A DNA stretch of 46,151 nt from the IMG/VR virus record IMGVR_UViG_3300045988_148061; one strand, 5' to 3'. The notes beneath the pieces are model-generated. The model was not told where the DNA came from, did no database searches, and worked only from the letters and a program-made list of their open reading frames with translations. Below are positions 5,796-36,111 of this stretch, piece after piece. Source of the DNA: a virus. The position numbers and the translations under genes are program-made. Numbering within the stretch: position 1 is the first letter of the stretch; the number at the start of each line of letters is the position of its first letter.

Positions 5796-6143
5796 TTAAG
5801 CCCTCTCTTTATAGCTTAATGAAATTTCCATATGAGAGGAATAATAAAAAGGCTTAGAGGCTAAATAAATAGATATTTTACCCATACTAGATACTTCTAC
5901 TGCATCACCTTCTTGAATATCAATATTAGGATTTAAAAATAATAAATGAGAAAAAGCTAATTTTCCAACTCCATCACTAGACATCATTTGAACATCTTTT
6001 TTAGATAAAGCACATTTAACATTTTCAGCTATTATTTCTTCTACAGTTTCAGTTACACCAGTATTTTCATTTTTAGCTTTAACTTTTCTCTTAATAGTAC
6101 ATCTGTCAAAGTAAGTGCTTTCTAATATTTCAATATCAGTCAT
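5796..6143 (-). CDS. Head closure/head-tail adaptor protein
   Basis: Assigned by position and size. ATG at 6143 overlaps the upstream stop (TAATG). Confidence 0.4.
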   Translation of the reverse strand: MTDIEILESTYFDRCTIKRKVKAKNENTGVTETVEEIIAENVKCALSKKDVQMMSSDGVGKLAFSHLLFLNPNIDIQEGDAVEVSSMGKISIYLASKPFYYSSHMEISLSYKERA

Positions 6144-7460: not shown

Positions 7461-8066
7461 TTATCTAAAATTATTTTTTATCTTATCCCAGTTTTTATTT
7501 ATTTCTTCTGCTGACATATTTCTTAATTGGTCTACTGTGTAAGTAGCTTTAGTAGTAGTTGAAGTTTTCAACTCACCACTTGTTCTTAATCTAGCATTTA
7601 CTGATTTTTCTATAGCTTCTGACCAACATTTTTCAAACACTTCTACATTTCCCATTATTTCATCAGCAGTATCTGATTTTATGAATTGACATAATTCAAT
7701 TGGTAGTCCTTTTTCACTTAAAAGTTTCATAGTTTCATTTTTAATTTTCTCTTGCTCAAAAGCTTTCTTTTCAGCTTCATATTTAGCCACTTTATCCTCA
7801 AACCTTTTACGCTCTCTTTCAGCTTTAGCCTTTATCTTTTCAGCTTCTGTCATTTTAGCAAGTTTTTCAGATTCTTCTTCTATAAGCTTTTCTTGCATTT
7901 CTTGTTGCTTTAATCTTTCAGCTTCTAATTTCTTTTTTTCTTTAGCTATTCTTTCTGCAACTATTTTATTAAGTTCGTCTTGAGTAAAAGTCTTAACTTC
8001 TTTAGCTTCTACTTCTGTGTTTTCTTGTACTTCATTATTAACAACGTTGTTTTCTAAATTTTCCAT
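7461..8066 (-). CDS. Capsid scaffolding protein
   Basis: 201 aa, highly charged Glu/Lys coiled-coil, directly upstream of the capsid gene. Strong SD (AGGAGG). Confidence 0.7.
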   Translation of the reverse strand: MENLENNVVNNEVQENTEVEAKEVKTFTQDELNKIVAERIAKEKKKLEAERLKQQEMQEKLIEEESEKLAKMTEAEKIKAKAERERKRFEDKVAKYEAEKKAFEQEKIKNETMKLLSEKGLPIELCQFIKSDTADEIMGNVEVFEKCWSEAIEKSVNARLRTSGELKTSTTTKATYTVDQLRNMSAEEINKNWDKIKNNFR

Positions 8067-8226
8067 TTTTTAATCCTCCTAGTTTAAAGCCATAGTAGGC
8101 TAAGTTTTCCGAGTTCTCTTTTACGTCTAAACAAGTAAAAAGACAATAAAAAAAGCCCTTACCAAAGACTTTAGTAAAAGCTAAAAAGACTATATATAAT
8201 ATATTATTTATTATTCTTATTGATAG

Positions 8227-8245
8227 TATTGTTAGAAATATCACG
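8227..8245 (+). repeat. Composite motif TTGTTAGAAATATCAC
   Basis: Joins one unit of each of the two neighbouring repeat families. A second copy, TTGTTAGAAATGTCAC, is at 8371..8386. Confidence 0.8.
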
Positions 8246-8248
8246 CTA

Positions 8249-8281
8249 ATATCGCATAAATATCACATAAATATCACATAA
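8249..8281 (+). repeat. 3 x 11-bp tandem repeat ATATC(G/A)CATAA
   Basis: Read directly. Further ATATCAC cores at 8238, 8411 and 8806, and inverted at 24246..24252. Confidence 0.9.
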
Positions 8282-8282
8282 A

Positions 8283-8311
8283 TGCAACGATTAATCACTA
8301 AAACCGTTGCA
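8283..8311. repeat. Inverted repeat TGCAACG-N15-CGTTGCA
   Basis: 7-bp perfect arms lying between the two 11-bp arrays. Confidence 0.8.
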
Positions 8312-8335
8312 AATACTATATTTTATTTGTTATAT

Positions 8336-8387
8336 TATTGTTAGATTATTGTTAGATTGTTGTTAGATTGTTGTTAGAAATGTCACA
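8336..8387 (+). repeat. 4 x 11-bp tandem repeat (T[A/G]TTGTTAGAT), ending in the composite TTGTTAGAAATGTCAC
   Basis: TTGTTAGA cores at 8338, 8349, 8360 and 8371, an exact 11-bp period. Confidence 0.9.
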
Positions 8388-8451
8388 TATTTTTCAATAA
8401 AAAAGAACTTATATCACAATAAGTCCTTAAATACATTGAAAATGCTATATT

Positions 8452-8730
8452 TTAATTGTTAACATTCTCTTTAAAAGTTATCTTAAGAATACTTTTATTT
8501 CTTCCAACACCTTTATTTATATGTTTTATCCATCCTTTAGCTTCAAAGTTTTTTAATATAGTTTCTATTTTTCTTTTTGTTATATTCAATCTTTTATCAC
8601 AACTATTAGACAATGAAGCTAATGAATATTCGCAAATAAAACTTTTATCTTTACAACATTTATATAATTGTCTTAATACTTCTATTTCCACTATATCTGC
8701 ATCTAATGGTAAATAATAATATGTTAGCAT
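8452..8730 (-). CDS. Orphan winged-helix DNA-binding protein; paralog of the N-terminal domain of the replication organiser (23264..24007)
   Basis: SNSCDKRLNITKRKIETILKNFEAKGWIKHINKG aligns by eye with NSDKRLNLTTQKVRTILKKFEKEGYIKFLTSG of the organiser. Confidence 0.65.
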   Translation of the reverse strand: MLTYYYLPLDADIVEIEVLRQLYKCCKDKSFICEYSLASLSNSCDKRLNITKRKIETILKNFEAKGWIKHINKGVGRNKSILKITFKENVNN

Positions 8731-8742
8731 ATAATCACCTCG

Positions 8743-8758
8743 ATATTATTATAACATA
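8743..8758 (-). promoter_or_regulatory. Extended -10 element (TGTTATAAT) in a 16-nt block identical to 34075..34090
   Basis: Minus strand ATGTTATAATAATAT. Very close to the SD, so promoter function is uncertain. Confidence 0.35.
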
Positions 8759-8814
8759 TAATTATCACATACAGTATGTATAAATATTGAAATTTAAACA
8801 ATTAAATATCACAA

Positions 8815-8958
8815 TTAATCTATTTTATAAATTTCTTTCCATTCTTTATATGTAATACTTGAACTTATTTCTATTCTTTTACCTTTTGCATCTCTTGCAA
8901 ATCTAGTTCCTTTTAAATTTTCTATGTAAGGGATAGTAGTTGTTCTGCAATAAGGATG
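8815..8958 (-). other. In-frame continuation of the gp7-like ORF beyond its TGA (47 codons carrying the HPxCR motif)
   Basis: Same frame as 8959..9852. Encodes HPYCRTTTIPYIENL... with no start codon or SD of its own. Confidence 0.7.
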
Positions 8959-9852
8959 TCAATGAAAAGGAGGCATATTTACACCAACTATTGCATCCTT
9001 AACATTAAACACCTCCCCATCTAACCTTTGACATATTTCACTTGTACGTTTATCTAATGTCGCAAGTATTTTATATTTAGTTACATCACATTCCTCATAA
9101 GCCTTTTGTGATGCGATTTCCATAAAGTAACTATGTTCTGTATGTATAAGCCTAATACAATGCTTTAAATCTGCATCTAATCTTTTAGATAATGCTTTAG
9201 AAGTTTCTTTTACACCTTTGCCTTGTATAAGCATTTGAGTAAGTTCCTCAACCATAGCATTTTTTAATTTAGTTCTGTTGCTCCATAACCTTTGACTATA
9301 ATGTCTACCACTCCAGGGAAAAGCTAATATTTCTTTTATCATATCATTATCAATATATGAAAAACTAGCACCAACTCCTATAGCTTTGTGCATATCATAT
9401 ATAGTTTGGTAATAGTTATCTTTTATTGTACTACTATAAGCTATTTGAAGCCTTTTATTAGTGTTTTCATATACTTCATTGATGTATTTACCACATTGAT
9501 AAAACATTTCTTCTGAACGGCTTATACGGCTTTTCATTGATAAAGTATTTAATTCAAGTAAAAGTTCATCATCTGCATATTCTTCTATAAGCTTCATATA
9601 AGTTTTTAAATCATGCTTAAATTCTTTATATTCTTTACCATTTAGAAGCTTTTGAGCATCTTTATAGCTTAAATTATTATCATCAGCATATTTATAAAAT
9701 AAGTTGTTTATTTCCTTACCTATGTTATCCATAGCTTTTTTATATTCTTTTACTAATTCTTTTTCTATTTTCTTTAAATCTTTTAAGCCTTTTTTCAGTT
9801 TATAAGCCTCTCTTTTGGTCCAATATTCTTCATTAGGTAAATTATTACTCAT
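8959..9852 (-). CDS. SPP1 gp7 / Mu F-like minor head morphogenesis protein, interrupted by an in-frame TGA
   Basis: [17 protein letters not shown]...NMPPFH matches the family C-terminal region. It stops at CAT TGA CAT just before the expected HPxCR. Confidence 0.75.
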
Positions 9853-10665
9853 TTAAAGCACCTTCATTCTGTGCATAAAAATAAGCTTCCTCAATTCTTT
9901 TAGAAGCTATATCAAAATAATTATTATCTAATTCTATACCTATAAATCTTCTGCCAGTGTTCATACAAGCAACACCTGTGCTACCACTTCCCATTGTAAA
10001 ATCTAACACCAAATCTCCTTCATTTGTATAAGTTTTTACAAGGTATTCTAGTAAATCAACAGGTTTTTGCGTTGGGTGAATTGTTTTTTCTTTAGAATTG
10101 CTAACTACAGCTGGTATTTTAATGTAGTCCATTGGATTTTTTACTTCAGAATCGTACACTTCCCAACTTCTTGGTTCATAATCGGTTTGAAAACTAATTT
10201 CATTACCATCTTTTCTATAACTTCTCCAATTTTTTGTATTACCTTTTTTTGCCTGTTTAACTCTTTCTGATTTTCTCGGTTGCATTTGTTTGTTAAATGT
10301 AGGTTTCATATATGCAAATATTACGATATCTTCTGTATATTTAAGATGCATAAACTTCGCACAAGCAAAATTGCTCGGTTTATGTTTTATCCAAGTTAAT
10401 TTCTCTCTATATCCCTTTAAATTGCTATGAATCAATTCAGATGTAAAAGGTTCTCTACCAAACAATACTATTGATCCATTAGGTTTTATTAGCTTGTTTA
10501 ACTTATCCCACATTTTATTAAAAGGTATAACCGTATCCCATTTACAAACAGTAGTTCCTAACCATATGGAGGGTCTGTTATAATGGCATCAATTTTTATC
10601 CCTTCAGATATTAAACTATCCATAATTTCAAGACAATCGCCATTGTATAATTTAAAATTCTCCAT
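9845..10665 (-). pseudogene. N6A/N4C DNA methyltransferase (beta class), split by a frameshift at the DPPY motif
   Basis: 10558..10665 encodes [35 protein letters not shown] then TAG. The -1 frame continues [21 protein letters not shown]... into 9845..10513, which carries [10 protein letters not shown]. Confidence 0.75.
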
Positions 10666-21301: not shown

Positions 21302-21498
21302 CTTATCCCCCTATTTTTCCATCTATTCTTCATTTCTAATTCTTTTATATATTTGTCAAATTCTTCTTTGCTCATACTTATATTTTTAACTTCAGCTTCT
21401 TTATATGCTTTTTCATATGTGTATTTAAGTTCGTTGTTTATATTGTGTCCCCATTGACTTTTTTCTAATCTTCCCATGTTCCCTGTACTTCCTCCCAT
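21298..21498 (-). CDS. Hypothetical protein (66 aa; alternative start 21477)
   Basis: Overlaps the primase-helicase 3' end. GGAGGAAG lies upstream of the internal ATG. Confidence 0.45.
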   Translation of the reverse strand: MGGSTGNMGRLEKSQWGHNINNELKYTYEKAYKEAEVKNISMSKEEFDKYIKELEMKNRWKNRGIR

Positions 21499-23252
21499 AA
21501 ATCTAAGTATCTTTTATTTAATTCTTTTTCTGTTTCAGCACTATAAAACCTTTTACGCTCTATACTAAACATTAACTTTTTACCTACATTTACCCCTGTA
21601 TGTCTATTCTTCAGTATTTTAAGTATTGCATCATATTCAACTACATCATCTTTCGCTCTTGATATTGTAGTTACATAATCAGCTAGGTTAGTTATATTAG
21701 CACTTCCTGCAACATCATCTTTTTCAATTTCATCATTCATAGACTTTCTAGGATGTGCAACTAAATGAACTAAAGCATTATATTTTTTAGCAAAGTTTTT
21801 TAGTTTTTTAACTACATCAGTTTCAGCTTCGTACTTATCCTTCAAGCTACTTTCAATAGTCATAAGATTATCTATAACAAACACCCTTACGCCATATCTT
21901 TTAGCTAGTATAGTCATTTTTTCAATTATAGCTTCAATTCTATAATCATCACTATCATATAAGAAAAATCTATCTTTCATATCATTAACTATTTTTTCTT
22001 TTGCTTGAATAGTAACTTTTTTATATTTATGACCGTCTTTAGCAGTATACTCTGCGAATTCTTCTTCGTTGGCTAAAGTTTGAAGCAACCAGTATTTAAC
22101 ATTCCCACCTATTAACTCACCACTAAATAGAAATGTCTTATAACCTTGAGCAATAGCTTCTGCAATATATATTTGATTTAATATAGTTGATTTACCACTA
22201 CCGTTTCTACCACTTAAAACATTAAGACTCCCAAATACCATTCCAACAAGCTTATCATCAATATATTCTATACCAGTTTTTAATGTTTCAGCTTCATGCA
22301 CGTCAAAATCTTCTATCATATCCAAAGTTGCAACACCTTCTAAAACTGGCGTTGAAGCTTTTTCTATTTGTTTTAATACTGCTAACTTTCCATACTTGTG
22401 CAATAACTCATTTATATCATTAGCTACCTCACATCTAACTATTTTTACACTACTGTTAGGCAATCTATTAAATACCTCTCTAGCACCTTTTATTCCTGCT
22501 TCATCATTATCAAACCAAATTATTATCTCTTCAAACTGTTCTATAAAAGTCCAGTTGCTTGTTATCCACTCATTAGTGCCATTAACTCCACTCGGTATAG
22601 ATACTGCATTTTTAAATCCACTTTCTATTGCTGATAAACAATCAAATTCACCTTCTGTTATTAATAAAGGATCTGATATATTTATTTTATCCATGTTAAA
22701 TAAAGTATTTACATTGGTCCCCTTCTCAAACCACATTTTAGGACCTTCACTCTTTTTAGTTTTTCTATATTTATTTGCTAAATGCTCGCCCAACTCATTT
22801 CTATACTCAAATACTACACAATTATTATTTTCTTTTACTCTTACATAATCTATAGTATCTTTTGATATATTTCTTTTTTCACAATAAGTTAATATGTTTT
22901 TATTATAATTTTCGTGCTTCGTAGGAGATTTTTTAGGCTTCCTATCTGATTCATTGATAATTATATCAATATTTAAATTAAAATCGTTTATAATTGATTT
23001 TGTAGCTTCTAGGAATGATTTATTGTAATATTCTTGATAGTGATTAAATATATCGTAAGAAGCAGCACATGAAAAACATTTGAATTTTTTCTTTTTAAAA
23101 TCATAACTCATACTTGGATTACTTTCAGAATGTTTAAAGCATAAACATTTATTATTTTTAAATTTTAATCCTAAATCTAAGGCTATTTTATTTTTAACTT
23201 GCTCTGCATCTATATATTTTTTTATATCATCAACTATGTTTTTTAAATTCAT
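21465..23252 (-). CDS. Bifunctional primase-helicase (CHC2 Zn finger, Toprim and DnaB-like ATPase)
   Basis: CLCFKHSESNPSMSYD...FKCFSC, then ITEGEFDCLS...WFDNDEAG, then Walker A SGRNGSGKST and Walker B VFVIDNL. Confidence 0.85.
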   Translation of the reverse strand: MNLKNIVDDIKKYIDAEQVKNKIALDLGLKFKNNKCLCFKHSESNPSMSYDFKKKKFKCFSCAASYDIFNHYQEYYNKSFLEATKSIINDFNLNIDIIINESDRKPKKSPTKHENYNKNILTYCEKRNISKDTIDYVRVKENNNCVVFEYRNELGEHLANKYRKTKKSEGPKMWFEKGTNVNTLFNMDKINISDPLLITEGEFDCLSAIESGFKNAVSIPSGVNGTNEWITSNWTFIEQFEEIIIWFDNDEAGIKGAREVFNRLPNSSVKIVRCEVANDINELLHKYGKLAVLKQIEKASTPVLEGVATLDMIEDFDVHEAETLKTGIEYIDDKLVGMVFGSLNVLSGRNGSGKSTILNQIYIAEAIAQGYKTFLFSGELIGGNVKYWLLQTLANEEEFAEYTAKDGHKYKKVTIQAKEKIVNDMKDRFFLYDSDDYRIEAIIEKMTILAKRYGVRVFVIDNLMTIESSLKDKYEAETDVVKKLKNFAKKYNALVHLVAHPRKSMNDEIEKDDVAGSANITNLADYVTTISRAKDDVVEYDAILKILKNRHTGVNVGKKLMFSIERKRFYSAETEKELNKRYLDLWEEVQGTWED

Positions 23253-23263
23253 ATATCTTCCCC

Positions 23264-24007
23264 CTACCCAATATCGCAACTTTGAGTATATTTTCTTCTA
23301 TTGTTGCATATACTAGGATTAACTTTAATATTTTTATTTTTATCAGAACCTATTGCAGTAGGTTCTTTTTTATTTGCTTCATTTAAATAATTTTCAAATT
23401 TAGTCCCAAATAAAGTTGCTGGCCTTAAATACTTTTCAAAATCTGTATTAAGCCAATCTTTGCTTTTACTATCAATAACCTTTTTAAAATCTTCTACTGT
23501 ATATCCTTCTCTTACTCTAGCATTTATAAAACTTTGAGTATTTTTAGTAGTTGGTCTGTAATTAGTAGAAGCTTTTCTATTAAGATAATCTATAACTAAA
23601 CTATATATATTATTATTATCTTTCTCTTTTTTCTTTGTAGTATTGTTAGATTGTTGTTGTTTAGTTGTTAGATTACTGTTATCTGACTCCTCAACTCGTT
23701 GCAATTGCTCACTTTTATTTGTTGCATTATTGTTGAATAATTGTTGCTTAATTGTTAGCTTCAATGTACTTTCTTTCCCTTTACTCCCACTTGTAAGAAA
23801 CTTAATATACCCTTCTTTCTCAAATTTCTTTAATATAGTCCTAACTTTTTGAGTAGTTAGATTTAATCTCTTATCAGAATTTACAACTAACTGATTAATT
23901 GTATATCCTGCTATATCTGTATCATAATTTGAGTATCTACACAACAATCTCCAAATATCTATCTCTTCAAGTGTCATTTCATCTAGTGCTATAAAATATT
24001 TTTTCAC
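23264..24007 (-). CDS. Replication organiser/initiator (winged-helix N domain plus Phg_2220_C-like C domain)
   Basis: C-terminal VIDYLNRKASTNYRPTTKNTQSFINARVREGYTVEDFKKVIDSKSKDWLNTDFEKYLRPATLFGTKFENY matches the conserved phage C-terminal domain. GTG start after AAGGGGG. Confidence 0.7.
   Translation of the reverse strand: MKKYFIALDEMTLEEIDIWRLLCRYSNYDTDIAGYTINQLVVNSDKRLNLTTQKVRTILKKFEKEGYIKFLTSGSKGKESTLKLTIKQQLFNNNATNKSEQLQRVEESDNSNLTTKQQQSNNTTKKKEKDNNNIYSLVIDYLNRKASTNYRPTTKNTQSFINARVREGYTVEDFKKVIDSKSKDWLNTDFEKYLRPATLFGTKFENYLNEANKKEPTAIGSDKNKNIKVNPSICNNRRKYTQSCDIG
23643..23760 (+). repeat. 11-bp-phased TTGTT(A/G)N(A/C)T repeats inside the organiser gene
   Basis: TTGTTAGAT at 23643 and 23665. 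TTGTTGAAT, TTGTTGCTT and TTGTTAGCT at 23730, 23741 and 23752. All offsets are multiples of 11 except between the two groups (65 bp). Confidence 0.75.
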
Positions 24008-28874: not shown

Positions 28875-29813
28875 CTATTCCCTTAAATAAGGCTTCAACA
28901 TTTCATCTATCTTTTCTTCTTCTAAATAAAATATTTGAGTTTCAACTATACCTTCACTATTTTTTATTTTGCATCTACCTTTTACATTTATATCTTGTAA
29001 GTTATAGCCTTTACCAATTAATGTATCACTATCTGTTTGGTCGAATGTATGAAATCCTACTATTTGACTGCAATTCATTTTACATCTACCTATAGTTTCC
29101 TTTGTGCAATCTTGAGTAGCTAATAAAAAGTAAATTCCATAACTCGCACACTTGCTCATAATTAAATGAAGTTTATCTTTGCAATCTTTATCACTTACAA
29201 CTTGAACTAATTCATCTATAACAACTATTATATAACTAATTTTTACATCATGCTTTTTATTATAATTTATTACATTTCTGCAATTAGCTTCGTCTAATAT
29301 ATCAGCCCTTTTATTCATTTCTTTTTCTAGCCATTTTATTTGAGCCATAAATTCTTCTTTGTTTGTACTCATACCTAAAAAATTATTATAATTTCTAAAA
29401 TAATAAACATCTGCTTTTTTATAATCACAACCTAAAAAACAAACTTCATTTCTCGTATATGTTTTAGTTATATTAGTTATAAACACATTTAAAAAGCTTG
29501 ATTTGCCCCATCTAGAAGCACCTCCAACTATTGTATGACCTTCTAACATATCAAAGTTTTTTAGATTCCCTTCTAAATCGTATCCTATAAAAGCCTTTAC
29601 TCCTTCTTTTTCACCTTCAATAAAAGTATATTTAACTTTATTTAATTCCATTTCAATATCCTCCCATTTCCCAACTGGTATATATTCATATTTAACTATA
29701 TTATCAACTTCGACAACTGGATCTAATTCAATTCTATTACTATCATAAATCACTTTGCACACATAAGCTAAACTTCCTGCTATAGTACCAATTAATAAAT
29801 TTCCAATTACCAT
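28875..29813 (-). CDS. FtsK/SpoIIIE-family ATPase with an N-terminal transmembrane helix
   Basis: Hydrophobic N terminus VIGNLLIGTIAGSLAYV, Walker A GGASRWGKSS, Walker B IIVVIDEL and the downstream ATQD block. Confidence 0.7.
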   Translation of the reverse strand: MVIGNLLIGTIAGSLAYVCKVIYDSNRIELDPVVEVDNIVKYEYIPVGKWEDIEMELNKVKYTFIEGEKEGVKAFIGYDLEGNLKNFDMLEGHTIVGGASRWGKSSFLNVFITNITKTYTRNEVCFLGCDYKKADVYYFRNYNNFLGMSTNKEEFMAQIKWLEKEMNKRADILDEANCRNVINYNKKHDVKISYIIVVIDELVQVVSDKDCKDKLHLIMSKCASYGIYFLLATQDCTKETIGRCKMNCSQIVGFHTFDQTDSDTLIGKGYNLQDINVKGRCKIKNSEGIVETQIFYLEEEKIDEMLKPYLRE

Positions 29814-29855
29814 TAGCACTCTCCCCTTTAATCTGCTACAATATAAGAAAAATAT

Positions 29856-34049: not shown

Positions 34050-34079
34050 TTTTAACCTCCTTATCTGTTTTCTAATATT

Positions 34080-34108
34080 ATTATAACATACTTAATAGGA
34101 TATGTATA
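34080..34108 (-). promoter_or_regulatory. Promoter TATACA-N17-(TGT)TATAAT with an extended -10
   Basis: Read on the minus strand, between the AT-rich/iteron region and 33714..34049. Confidence 0.5.
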
Positions 34109-34191
34109 TGTTTTTTATTAAAAGCTAAATTTTTTTTATTATATATATATTATCTATAATAATTTCCCTATAATAACTTATCTATCTTTGT

Positions 34192-34298
34192 TCAATTCCA
34201 TCGAATTAACCCCGTCAATTCCACGGAATGTACCCCGTCAATTCCACGGAATGTGTGGGTATTATATTTTTACTTATACCGTCAATTCCACGGAATGT
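34192..34298 (+). repeat. Iterons: three exact 20-bp CCGTCAATTCCACGGAATGT plus one degenerate copy
   Basis: Exact copies at 34212..34231, 34235..34254 and 34279..34298, with a degenerate TCAATTCCATCGAAT at 34192. Spacings are 23, 23 and 44 bp. Each contains ATTCC-AC-GGAAT dyad symmetry. Confidence 0.9.
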
Positions 34299-34336
34299 GT
34301 GCAGTATTTTCAACGGTTTAAGCTATAAACAATATT

Positions 34337-34363
34337 TGTGGATTATGTGGATATTGTGGATAA
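34337..34363 (-). promoter_or_regulatory. Three abutting DnaA-box-like 9-mers
   Basis: TGTGGATTA TGTGGATAT TGTGGATAA. The reverse complements are TAATCCACA, ATATCCACA and TTATCCACA against the consensus TTATCCACA (1, 1 and 0 mismatches). Confidence 0.7.
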
Positions 34364-34441
34364 ACTTATATATAATTAAATTAGTATAATTTTACAAGCA
34401 CCTAGTAGAGATAAACAACTCATACCACAAAGGAGGAAGAA

Positions 34442-34573
34442 ATGAAAATAAAATTACTTGAAAATGATAAAATAATCGAAGTGCCTAAGTACTGGAAATG
34501 GCATTTAGTAGAAGGTAAAAAAGTTATAATTGACCAAAACAAAGAAATAATTGCTTTAGTAGTAGAGGAATAA
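34442..34573 (+). CDS. Hypothetical protein (43 aa), plus strand
   Basis: Strong SD AAAGGAGGAAG 3 nt before the ATG. Product MKIKLLENDKIIEVPKYWKWHLVEGKKVIIDQNKEIIALVVEE. Confidence 0.55.
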   Translation: MKIKLLENDKIIEVPKYWKWHLVEGKKVIIDQNKEIIALVVEE

Positions 34574-34638
34574 TGTATAAATATATTCAGATATGCTTAT
34601 AATACCTTTTAAATTAGATTTTAAAGGTGGTCGGTTAT

Positions 34639-34812
34639 ATGTTTAATATATTTAATCAAGATAAAGAAGAAAAAGGCTCATACTGGGAAAGAAATCATCA
34701 AGATAATTTTTATAGTGAGAGTAGCTATAATAATAATTTTCAATATTGTAGATGTTGTGATAGGTATCAAAGATTTGAATATGATAGATGTTGTGTATGT
34801 CATTCAAATTAA
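34639..34812 (+). CDS. Cys-rich small protein (57 aa), plus strand
   Basis: ATG after AAAGGTGG. The C terminus is CRCCDRYQRFEYDRCCVCH. Confidence 0.5.
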   Translation: MFNIFNQDKEEKGSYWERNHQDNFYSESSYNNNFQYCRCCDRYQRFEYDRCCVCHSN

Positions 34813-34911
34813 AATAGCCTATACAGATTAAGTATAAGCCATTAAAACGTTAGAATAATTTGGATATAAATTTGTGGAATTTCAAAAATCTAGACAATAA
34901 TTATAAACTTA

Positions 34912-34941
34912 TTGTACTAACTTAATTATATTTTTCATAAT
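34912..34941 (+). promoter_or_regulatory. Candidate plus-strand promoter TTGTAC-N18-CATAAT with no ORF before the terminators
   Basis: Read directly. Plus-strand terminators follow at 35005 and 35071. Confidence 0.3.
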
Positions 34942-35004
34942 AAAATTTGTCAATATTTTACCAAATAAAAAGGATTTTAATTACTTTTATAGAATTATAT
35001 ATAT

Positions 35005-35046
35005 GTACTAAAATTTAGCTATGTTTTAGTACCTCTTTTCTTTTAT
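35005..35046 (+). terminator. Rho-independent terminator (plus strand)
   Basis: GTACTAAAA-N10-TTTTAGTAC followed by CTCTTTTCTTTTATT. Confidence 0.6.
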
Positions 35047-35070
35047 TATTAATTATATCGTTAATAAAGA

Positions 35071-35100
35071 AGATTGCTTTTAAGCAGTCTTTTTTTATTT
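35071..35100 (+). terminator. Rho-independent terminator (plus strand)
   Basis: AGATTGC-ttttaa-GCAGTCT followed by TTTTTTTATTT. Confidence 0.65.
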
Positions 35101-35110
35101 GTCTAATTTA

Positions 35111-35150
35111 AACATAAAAAAGAAGCTAATCCCCATAGCTTCCCCTTTTT
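35111..35150. terminator. Bidirectional terminator
   Basis: GAAGCTA-atcccca-TAGCTTC flanked by an A-run upstream and CCCTTTTT downstream. Confidence 0.6.
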
Positions 35151-35270
35151 ACTGAACTTATATGATTGTTTGTTGATATTGAAATCTTTAGCCGATTAAC
35201 TGTTGAATTTATACTCTACAACTCGAGTGTTGTAAATTAAAGTTGGATATACTTATATTGTAGCAAGTAA

Positions 35271-35302
35271 AAGAAGCTATCGCAACAATACAATAGCTTC
35301 TT
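35271..35302 (-). terminator. Hairpin downstream of the endolysin gene
   Basis: 10-bp stem AAGAAGCTAT/ATAGCTTCTT with a 12-nt loop and short T-tracts on both strands. Confidence 0.45.
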
Positions 35303-35433
35303 TTGAATCAAAATACATAATAATTACAAAATATAGAAACATTTAGAATAAGATTAAAGTAAAGATAATATATTCTTACTTATGTAATGTTATTTTAATT
35401 ATATTTTAACATATATTTCCAATAAAATAAACA

Positions 35434-36111
35434 TTATCTTGGAATTAAATAAGCATCTTTATAACCTTTTTTCTTTAATTCTTCAACTTTTGAATCTGCT
35501 ACAGATTTATCACTATAAGCACCAATACAAACTGCATATAGTTTTTTATTAGTAAATGAAGTGCTAGAATTACTATTTTCAGATATAGTTTGATTTGCTA
35601 TTCCCTCTGCTATTAATTTAGCTATCTTTTTCCTATCAGATGTATATTTATCAGTATCACTTTTATTAGATACAAAGCAAGTTTCTATTAATATTGCAGG
35701 GGGCTTAGTCAATCTTAACCAACCTAAATCGCGTTTTAAGTCATTTATATCATGCTTTATTTTTCTATCTTTAAATTCAGTTTTAAGTTTATCTTGAACT
35801 TTTTGAGCAAATACTTTCCCTTTAGAACTTCTGTATATTACTTCTGTACCATTAGCAGCTGCATTATCTGAACTATTAAAGTGTATTTGAACAACTAAAT
35901 CATAATTTTTAGAATTAGCTTTTTTAGCTTGTTGCTCTATATAATCACTTCCTCTATTTATTTCATGATAATCTGTTTCACAACCTAGTTTTTTAAGATG
36001 TTCAACTATAAATTTAGCTAATACTCTATTTTCTTGACTTTCATTTATAAAACCAACTGCACCAGTACCTTTACCAGTAAGAGTATGACCTGCTGATATT
36101 AATATTTTCAT
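35434..36111 (-). CDS. Endolysin: N-acetylmuramoyl-L-alanine amidase (Amidase_3/CwlC-like) with a C-terminal SPOR-like domain
   Basis: MKILISAGHT...VQIHFNS...GTEVIY amidase blocks. The C-terminal KLYAVCIGAYSDKSVADSKVEELKKKGYKDAYLIP is SPOR-like. Confidence 0.8.
   Translation of the reverse strand: MKILISAGHTLTGKGTGAVGFINESQENRVLAKFIVEHLKKLGCETDYHEINRGSDYIEQQAKKANSKNYDLVVQIHFNSSDNAAANGTEVIYRSSKGKVFAQKVQDKLKTEFKDRKIKHDINDLKRDLGWLRLTKPPAILIETCFVSNKSDTDKYTSDRKKIAKLIAEGIANQTISENSNSSTSFTNKKLYAVCIGAYSDKSVADSKVEELKKKGYKDAYLIPR

Follow-up and report, generated by a model that had tools for sequence, protein, structure and literature searches.

The segment at positions 8144-8814 of a viral contig known only from metagenomic data (IMG/VR record IMGVR_UViG_3300045988_148061; 46,151 nucleotides, the whole of which is referred to below as the window) lies in the head module and carries two arrays of direct repeats together with a gene encoding a 92-aa DNA-binding protein. 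On the basis of sequence comparison, we consider it likely (a probability of roughly 0.78) that this segment is a late-region, non-coding duplicate of an origin located inside the replication organiser gene (23590-23762), that the two loci are the equivalents of oriR and oriL of phage SPP1, and that the late copy is accompanied by an accessory protein consisting of a DNA-binding domain only. A first-pass annotation of the window, made from the sequence alone, had proposed a second origin-like, initiator-binding locus of the SPP1 type with its own truncated initiator paralog, and this proposal gains support from the homology of the two loci, from the covariation of the late repeats with the initiator, and from the correspondence with SPP1.

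SPP1 has two origins of similar organisation, each of them combining direct repeats with an AT-rich unwinding element; oriL is located inside gene 38, and oriR in a late segment that breaks into the structural genes, has transcription signals on either side and comprises three morons (PMC6316719). The gp38 protein at oriR has been proposed to stall the replication fork and thus to cause the switch to concatemeric replication, and the role of oriR is still a model in which the locus acts either as a second origin or as a gp38-bound barrier triggering the theta-to-sigma switch (PMC6316719; PMC3485210). The SPP1 genome record places the oriR segment between gene 7 and the scaffold gene 11; in our comparison, the gene 7-gene 8 intergenic region and gene 38 have AAAAGACACAGAA and ATAAACAACAATGATAA in common. 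In the window we found an initiator of the gp38 family, repeats and an AT-rich stretch within its gene, a non-coding copy of both, and the location of this copy in the gene-7/scaffold slot together with terminators. The C-terminal half of the organiser is 33% identical to SPP1 gp38 over 131 aa (BLASTP, E 2e-18).

Two copies of an origin-like segment

All features are ordered here in gene orientation (reverse complement), the minus strand being the coding strand of all genes in the window, and their coordinates are collected in Table 1. Two words recur in the segment, namely TTGTTAGAT (box 2; ATCTAACAA in gene orientation) and ATATCACA (box 1). Tandem Repeats Finder identified two period-11 arrays, at 8236-8283 (AAATATCACAT, 4.4 copies, 83% matches) and at 8327-8378 (TTGTTAGATTA, 4.7 copies, 95% matches), and a separate repeat search recovered the same copies with a spacing of exactly 11 bp. 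The exact 11-bp period described in the first-pass annotation was thus reproduced, whereas its count of three copies in the box-1 array required correction to four, a weaker ATATCAC copy having been found at 8238. The 9-mer TTGTTAGAT occurs five times in the 46 kb, three times in the segment and twice in the organiser gene (at 23643 and 23665, 22 bp apart), and nowhere else in the window. ATATCRCA was observed 10 times against 3.1 expected, a count reached by none of 100 shuffles. For the degenerate box-1 word YGYGAYAW, 21 copies were counted where 10.5 are expected; nine of the 21 fall within 8238-8813, all of them on one strand (gene orientation).

The position between the scaffold and gp7-like genes, the two composites TTGTTAGAAAT(A/G)TCAC bracketing the arrays (8229-8244 and 8371-8386), and the inverted repeat with 7-bp arms (TGCAACG, 8284-8290, and CGTTGCA, 8305-8311), all listed in the first-pass annotation, were found as described. 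No functional role is assigned to the inverted repeat (8284-8311), since relatives do not conserve it.

The same layout is present inside the organiser gene, where Tandem Repeats Finder detected a period-11 array at 23719-23756 in addition to the two exact box-2 words, which bears out the earlier statement that the word recurs there in 11-bp phase. The in-gene stretch consists of an array, an ATAAAA-containing spacer, a second array, CACTATCAAAGAA and an AT-rich stretch, matching the architecture of the non-coding element, so that both loci have the order array, spacer, array, CTATCAAAGAA, AT-rich in common; repeats and an AT-rich stretch are arranged in this way in ten related organiser genes. 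When non-coding elements of three relatives (L022, L118, and L127) were aligned with the in-gene segments of the window, L119, and L107, they were 66-75% identical over about 150 nucleotides. In a blastn search of the window with the L022 element, the late slot was the best match and the organiser gene the second (E 5e-11 and 4e-10), the next-best locus anywhere in the window reaching E 2e-3. A search of viral contigs for box-2 dimers likewise returned organiser genes (L119, L122) and non-coding late-region elements.

The AT-rich element at 8188-8226 matches the part of the in-gene copy that encodes ...LSKKKEKDNNI..., and the non-coding copy retains CTATCAAAGAATAAAGAA, in which a remnant of the ...LSKKKEK... 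coding stretch can be recognised; this suggests that the late copy was derived from the organiser gene. In addition, the array/spacer junction recurs where the small gene ends (3' end) and in what follows it, so that small gene plus origin copy resemble a partial duplicate of the 5' half of an organiser gene.

The small protein, the initiator, and their predicted sites

The 92-aa protein is 37% identical to residues 4-92 of the 247-aa organiser over 89 aa (BLASTP, E 2e-15), and its AlphaFold2 model is a winged helix (pLDDT, the predicted local distance difference test score, 78; elements H-E-H-H-E-E), for which the top Foldseek matches were MarR, BlaI, and PadR proteins (probability 1.0, template modelling score 0.55-0.62, E about 2e-3 to 2e-2). 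The first-pass annotation had read this gene as parallel to the N-terminal winged-helix domain of the organiser and had named structure prediction as a check; both lines of evidence agree with it, and by these comparisons the small protein is a true paralog of that domain. Weak matches to replication initiators were found in PHROG. A full HMMER search retrieved 44 relatives, in which full-length initiators are mixed with short proteins consisting of the DNA-binding domain only; none of the full-length initiators among the 44 is close to the small protein, and hence box 1 could not be shown to be the origin iteron of another phage. A word-indexed protein search with the small protein returned near-identical proteins only. 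Hundreds of metagenome assemblies contain the identical protein, and none of the contigs carrying it is longer than 50 kb. The public phage genomes of INPHARED yielded neither a DNA nor a protein match to the segment or the small protein, scans of 185,579 reference bacterial genomes with the small-protein and organiser alignments yielded no relative and no prophage copy, and neither the segment nor the small protein had a match in Rfam, PADLOC, or NCBIfam.

The late slot differs among variants of this phage lineage, and comparison of relatives carrying different alleles of the small protein separates the two boxes. The box-1 word is TGTGATAT in the window; TGTGACAT in L012 (small protein 84% identical to that of the window), in every copy including those in the promoter; TGTTAC or TGTTCC in L011 (63%); and AGACAGTT in both array and promoter of L019, whose small protein is 39% and whose head genes are 88-99% identical to those of the window. 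In L128, where the small gene is cut off by the start of the contig, a fifth word, TAGACAAT, is found. The promoter boxes change with the protein allele in those relatives whose contig includes the promoter. Box 2 is unchanged in all five and is constant across relatives with the window-type organiser. The small gene and box 1 are both missing from L022, L118, and L127, which retain two arrays of box 2 as well as the spacer and the AT-rich stretch; in such relatives a pure box-2 array occupies the position of the second array. Since box 1 varies with the small protein and box 2 does not, we infer that box 1 represents the sites of the small protein and box 2 those of a conserved factor, for which the presence of box 2 inside organiser genes points to the organiser. 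The alternative put forward in the first-pass annotation, that the small paralog competes with the full-length organiser for the same sites, is therefore unsupported, because the small protein covaries with ATATCACA and not with TTGTTAGAT.

The short contigs L011 (end at 1228) and L012 (end at 6032), which carry diverged alleles of the small gene, end in or just after the arrays, which is probably due to assembly breakage at repeats rather than to a physical genome end.

The repeats of the late slot also change with the type of initiator. In contigs 142192 and 153650, the head genes and the primase-helicase are the same but the initiator is an unrelated one, of type 2 (MSYTIVDNEII...), whose linker DNA contains four GTGAAAAACCCAACT-type repeats with 23-bp spacing; the slots between gp7 and scaffold genes in both contigs hold the GTGAAAAACCCAACT-type family and no box 2. 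These in-gene copies were found only when mismatches were allowed, an exact-word search giving slot copies only. Compared with its own replication region, the type-2 slot had its best match in the initiator gene (E 1.4e-9), whereas the cross-controls gave E of at least 0.007. In type-3 organisers, the recognition helix is TTKKVRN as against TTQKVRT, and GGGCAACA repeats occur in the gene in the same in-gene architecture; the gp7-scaffold slot of L218 contains an element of GGGCAA repeats with an 11-bp period. In three genomes, the organiser could be located on the contig that carries the box-2 element, and in all three it is of the window type. Late-region repeats thus change with the initiator type, for two families within single genomes and for the third across contigs.

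Feature map, neighbouring genes, and other loci

Table 1. Features of the late-region segment, its boundary genes, and the replication region of the window (order in gene orientation within each region)
Feature	Position	Strand	Basis and remarks
gp7-like minor head gene (Mu F / SPP1 gene 7 type), upstream boundary	8815..9852	-	Pfam Phage_Mu_F 4e-14; PHROG minor head protein 4e-89
Putative promoter/operator of the small gene	8731..8814	-	84 bp; read from sequence
Box-1 copies in the small-gene promoter	8806-8813 and 8762-8769	-	Read from sequence
Putative extended -10 element of the small gene, TGTTATAAT	8748-8756	-	Read from sequence
Ribosome-binding site of the small gene, GAGGTGA	8735-8741	-	Read from sequence; rated good
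Gene of the small 92-aa protein (DNA-binding domain only)	8452..8730	-	BLASTP, AlphaFold2, Foldseek
Predicted intrinsic terminator of the small gene	8396..8428	-	RNA fold -9.4 kcal/mol, z -2.8, followed by a U-run
Box-1 copy in the loop of this terminator	8411-8418	-	Sequence
First array	8327..8387		One box 1 (8380-8387) fused to five box 2 (TTGTTAGAT / TTGTTATAT), period 11 bp
Conserved spacer, about 44 bp (AAATAAAAYRTAGTRTTTKCAAYGG... in gene orientation)	8283..8326		Alignments with relatives; holds the inverted repeat
Second array	8227..8281		Four box 1 (ATATCRC, 8238-8281) and one box 2 (8227-8237)
CTATCAA motif, then about 30 bp of almost pure A+T	8188..8226		Candidate DNA-unwinding element
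Second predicted intrinsic terminator, before the scaffold gene	8144..8182	-	Terminator scan; RNA fold -13 kcal/mol, z -3.65
Scaffold gene, downstream boundary	7461..8066	-	Pfam DUF4355 6.6e-17; PHROG scaffolding 2.8e-26
Replication organiser / origin-binding protein	23264..24007	-	N-terminal winged helix and C-terminal Phg_2220_C, cf. SPP1 gp38
In-gene origin-like segment, linker-coding region	23590..23762		Box-2 arrays 23719-23762 and 23643-23673; AT-rich 23598-23640
Primase-helicase gene, immediately downstream of the organiser gene	21465..23279	-	Pfam Zn_ribbon_DnaG, Toprim, DnaB_C

The second terminator is kept in L019, L022, and L128, and is also found in L118. The organiser was assigned by its C-terminal domain (PF09524, 4.8e-29; TIGR02220, 2.5e-32), and a PDB sequence search with it gave no match. 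In the initiators of L143 (1501-2220), P0006, and P0013, linker peptides are repeated (for example VTNAYVIGNS twice or SDNNMT twice); they reflect in-gene DNA repeats of other sequence types, and linker origins seem to be general in the family.

The gp7-like open reading frame was called at 8959-9852, with an in-frame TGA at 8959-8961, beyond which the frame runs on for 47 codons to a TAA stop at 8815-8817, and translation through the TGA gives a conserved HPYCR motif. Because the frame continues past the TGA, the gene probably ends at 8815, not at 8959. L019, L020, and L021 share this TGA, and L012 and L022 lack it; it could represent either programmed readthrough (recoding) or a tolerated nonsense mutation. 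The adjacent gene for an N6/N4 DNA methylase (9845-10665) is split into a 35-aa open reading frame ending in DPPYG and a 222-aa one in another frame, 44 nucleotides apart; the split is identical in 10 of 10 near-identical contigs and could be a frameshift, programmed or not, or indicate a pseudogene.

Near-identical genomes (L001-L010, L013, and L014) carry as their terminase module either a 148-aa protein with Terminase_6N or an unrelated Terminase_2 with Terminase_3, and they also differ by homing-endonuclease-type insertions (HNH, GIY-YIG, NUMOD); the terminase swaps and homing insertions indicate active module exchange. A 314-aa ATPase of the FtsK/SpoIIIE family (28875-29819) is encoded among the early genes, adjoining a GIY-YIG nuclease, and a small SpoOE-like gene is found in relatives, which hints at a spore-forming host.

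A region of 1.4 kb poor in open reading frames (34050-35434, especially 34192-34363) separates the lysis amidase gene from the first early genes. It contains three tandem DnaA-box-like words at 34337-34363 (TTATCCACA, ATATCCACA, and TAATCCACA in gene orientation) and, at 34190-34300, a GC-rich word, CATTCCGTGGAATTGACGG, whose core is palindromic and which is present four times; RepA_N or HTH_36/DnaD_N genes occupy the equivalent place in L014 and L013. By its sequence, this stretch could serve as an operator or could be one more origin-like locus, of the plasmid type.

Alternative explanations, proposed mechanism, and significance

Several observations weigh against reading the late segment as a second origin of the SPP1 type. 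The repeats inside the organiser gene also encode an Asn/Gln/Thr-rich linker, and their conservation could partly be due to selection on the protein; the fact that non-coding copies keep the same DNA counts against protein-only selection. The position of the late copy is not fixed: in some relatives it lies elsewhere in the late region, upstream of terS in L127 and L129 and beside an HNH gene in L121, which fits a mobile cis element and weakens the positional analogy with SPP1. The third iteron family pairs a slot element and an initiator gene across different contigs, and the window and L019 arrange box 1 differently with respect to box 2 and the AT-rich stretch. GC skew is flat across the window, an observation that is uninformative given that all genes are co-oriented.

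Among the other explanations, the one that fares best is pure titration or handcuffing of the initiator, in which the arrays never fire but sequester the organiser, while the small protein tunes access to them. Iteron control loci of this kind, such as incA of plasmid P1, act by titration or handcuffing, and an extra origin-type iteron array outside the active origin, as present in the window, could similarly sequester or pair the initiator. The repeats are indeed the same as those at the in-gene origin, and in the window the array beside the AT-rich stretch has largely been replaced by sites for a protein that has no Phg_2220_C domain. However, a complete origin layout, including the AT-rich stretch, is kept in all relatives, and in L019, L022, and L118 a full box-2 array adjoins that stretch. 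Unlike incA, the copy in the window thus combines the AT-rich stretch and full origin layout with a second set of sites for a different protein, and the window phage shows no plasmid maintenance genes. We regard pure titration as improbable and, as it is inseparable by sequence from the second-origin and fork-barrier readings, treat it as a sub-variant of the SPP1-type explanation.

A plasmid-type partition locus, in which the small protein would be a centromere-binding protein like TubR or ParR and the arrays the centromere of an extrachromosomal prophage, appears very unlikely. As in TubR/tubC and ParR/parC, a small DNA-binding protein whose promoter contains its own sites, suggestive of autoregulation, adjoins two clusters of phased direct repeats (11 bp in the window, about 11-12 bp in this group of systems), and protein and sites show an allelic diversity typical of incompatibility determinants; moreover, contigs carrying the small gene never exceed 50 kb, no integrase was present among the genes scanned, and, as noted above, the 185,579 reference genomes contained no prophage copy. 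However, no partner nucleoside triphosphatase (NTPase) of the ParA, ParM, or TubZ type occurs among the annotated genes of the window or of the near-identical contigs, most of the repeats (box 2) belong to the initiator, being homologous to the in-gene origin and covarying with the initiator and not with the small protein, the arrays persist in close relatives that lack the small gene, and the small protein itself is a paralog of an initiator domain.

The least probable reading, in which terminase recognises the arrays as pac sites, or an activator of the scaffold/capsid promoter binds them, and the small protein is a late regulator, is suggested by the location in the head module upstream of the scaffold gene, by the same element lying directly upstream of terS in L127 and L129, and by the transcription-factor fold of the small protein, but it conflicts with a slot that is 100% identical across contigs with two different terminase modules and that lies 5 kb from terS in the window (the identity despite different terminases arguing against a packaging signal), with the covariation of the repeats with the initiator, with the intrinsic terminator between the arrays and the scaffold gene, and with the occurrence of the element at a site unrelated to either function (L121). 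The partition, pac-site, and late-promoter readings were accordingly rejected as primary explanations, for want of an NTPase, of terminase covariation, and because of the intervening terminator, respectively. No anti-phage defence profile of PADLOC matched.

Returning to the SPP1-type reading, the window resembles SPP1 in the Phg_2220_C domain at the C-terminus of its initiator, in the presence of one origin in the linker of the initiator gene, and in a non-coding second copy (direct repeats and AT-rich stretch) located between the gene-7-type and scaffold genes and bracketed by transcription signals. It differs in the N-terminal DNA-binding domain and the iteron sequences, in having a primase-helicase in place of gp39 and gp40, and in that the window phage, in contrast to the siphovirus SPP1, encodes a contractile tail sheath (Phage_sheath_1). 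It also differs in the neighbour of the late copy, a paralog of the DNA-binding domain whose own sites are woven into the origin copy. Comparison of SPP1 gp8, gp9, and gp10 with gp38 and with the small protein revealed no relationship, and the accessory DNA-binding-domain-only paralog with private iterons is novel with respect to SPP1, which has none. Phage P4 carries, in addition to ori, a second cluster of alpha-protein iterons, crr, which is required in cis, and is thus similar to the window in that initiator-binding repeats of one kind form two clusters at separate places in the genome. Its alpha protein is, however, an unrelated primase-helicase-initiator fusion, and P4 is not known to have a DNA-binding-domain-only paralog or a location of the cluster in a head module.

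In the mechanism that we propose, the winged helix of the organiser would bind the 11-bp-phased TTGTTAGAT (box 2) at both loci, whereas the 92-aa protein would bind its own word, ATATCACA (box 1), for which two sites are predicted in the small-gene promoter, one in the terminator loop, and five in the origin copy, in helical phase with box 2. The small gene is autonomous, with its own putative promoter and bracketing terminators, and the presence of box 1 twice in this promoter suggests autoregulation, in which the small protein would repress its own promoter. It may also cover a portion of the late origin copy, lying on the face of the helix that the organiser uses. As it lacks the Phg_2220_C domain, it cannot do the job of the organiser C-terminus and is likely to modulate the late copy only, where it could restrain unwinding or helicase loading or reinforce a protein-DNA barrier. 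Restraint of firing or reinforcement of the barrier is the most likely effect, which we hold loosely, since the allele-dependent layout of the boxes does not allow a single mechanism to be read from the anatomy. Following the SPP1 model, the locus itself would serve either as a second initiation site or as a fork-arrest site for the theta-to-concatemer switch.

At least five pairs of small protein and sites occur in phages that are otherwise 88-99% identical, and the presence or absence and strong diversification of the small module among near-identical phages suggest a specificity determinant under diversifying selection. A more speculative interpretation, which we put forward tentatively, is that the second origin is under an allele-specific lock, made up of the paralog with its private iterons, that decides when or for whom this origin is usable. 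Such a lock might time the theta-to-concatemer switch, or it might act as a replication-incompatibility determinant between co-infecting relatives with the same initiator. If true, it would represent a new class of phage replication regulator, one that arose when an initiator gene was partly duplicated along with the origin inside it.

The natural variants described here, with and without the small paralog, with five site specificities and three iteron types, are well suited to functional tests, and the small protein provides a clean example of how, once an initiator gene has been partly duplicated, a new DNA-binding specificity and its sites evolve together. That the late copy follows the specificity of the initiator in three iteron families, and sometimes moves within the late region, argues that a second origin copy has been selected for in this set of uncultivated phages and is not an accident of SPP1.

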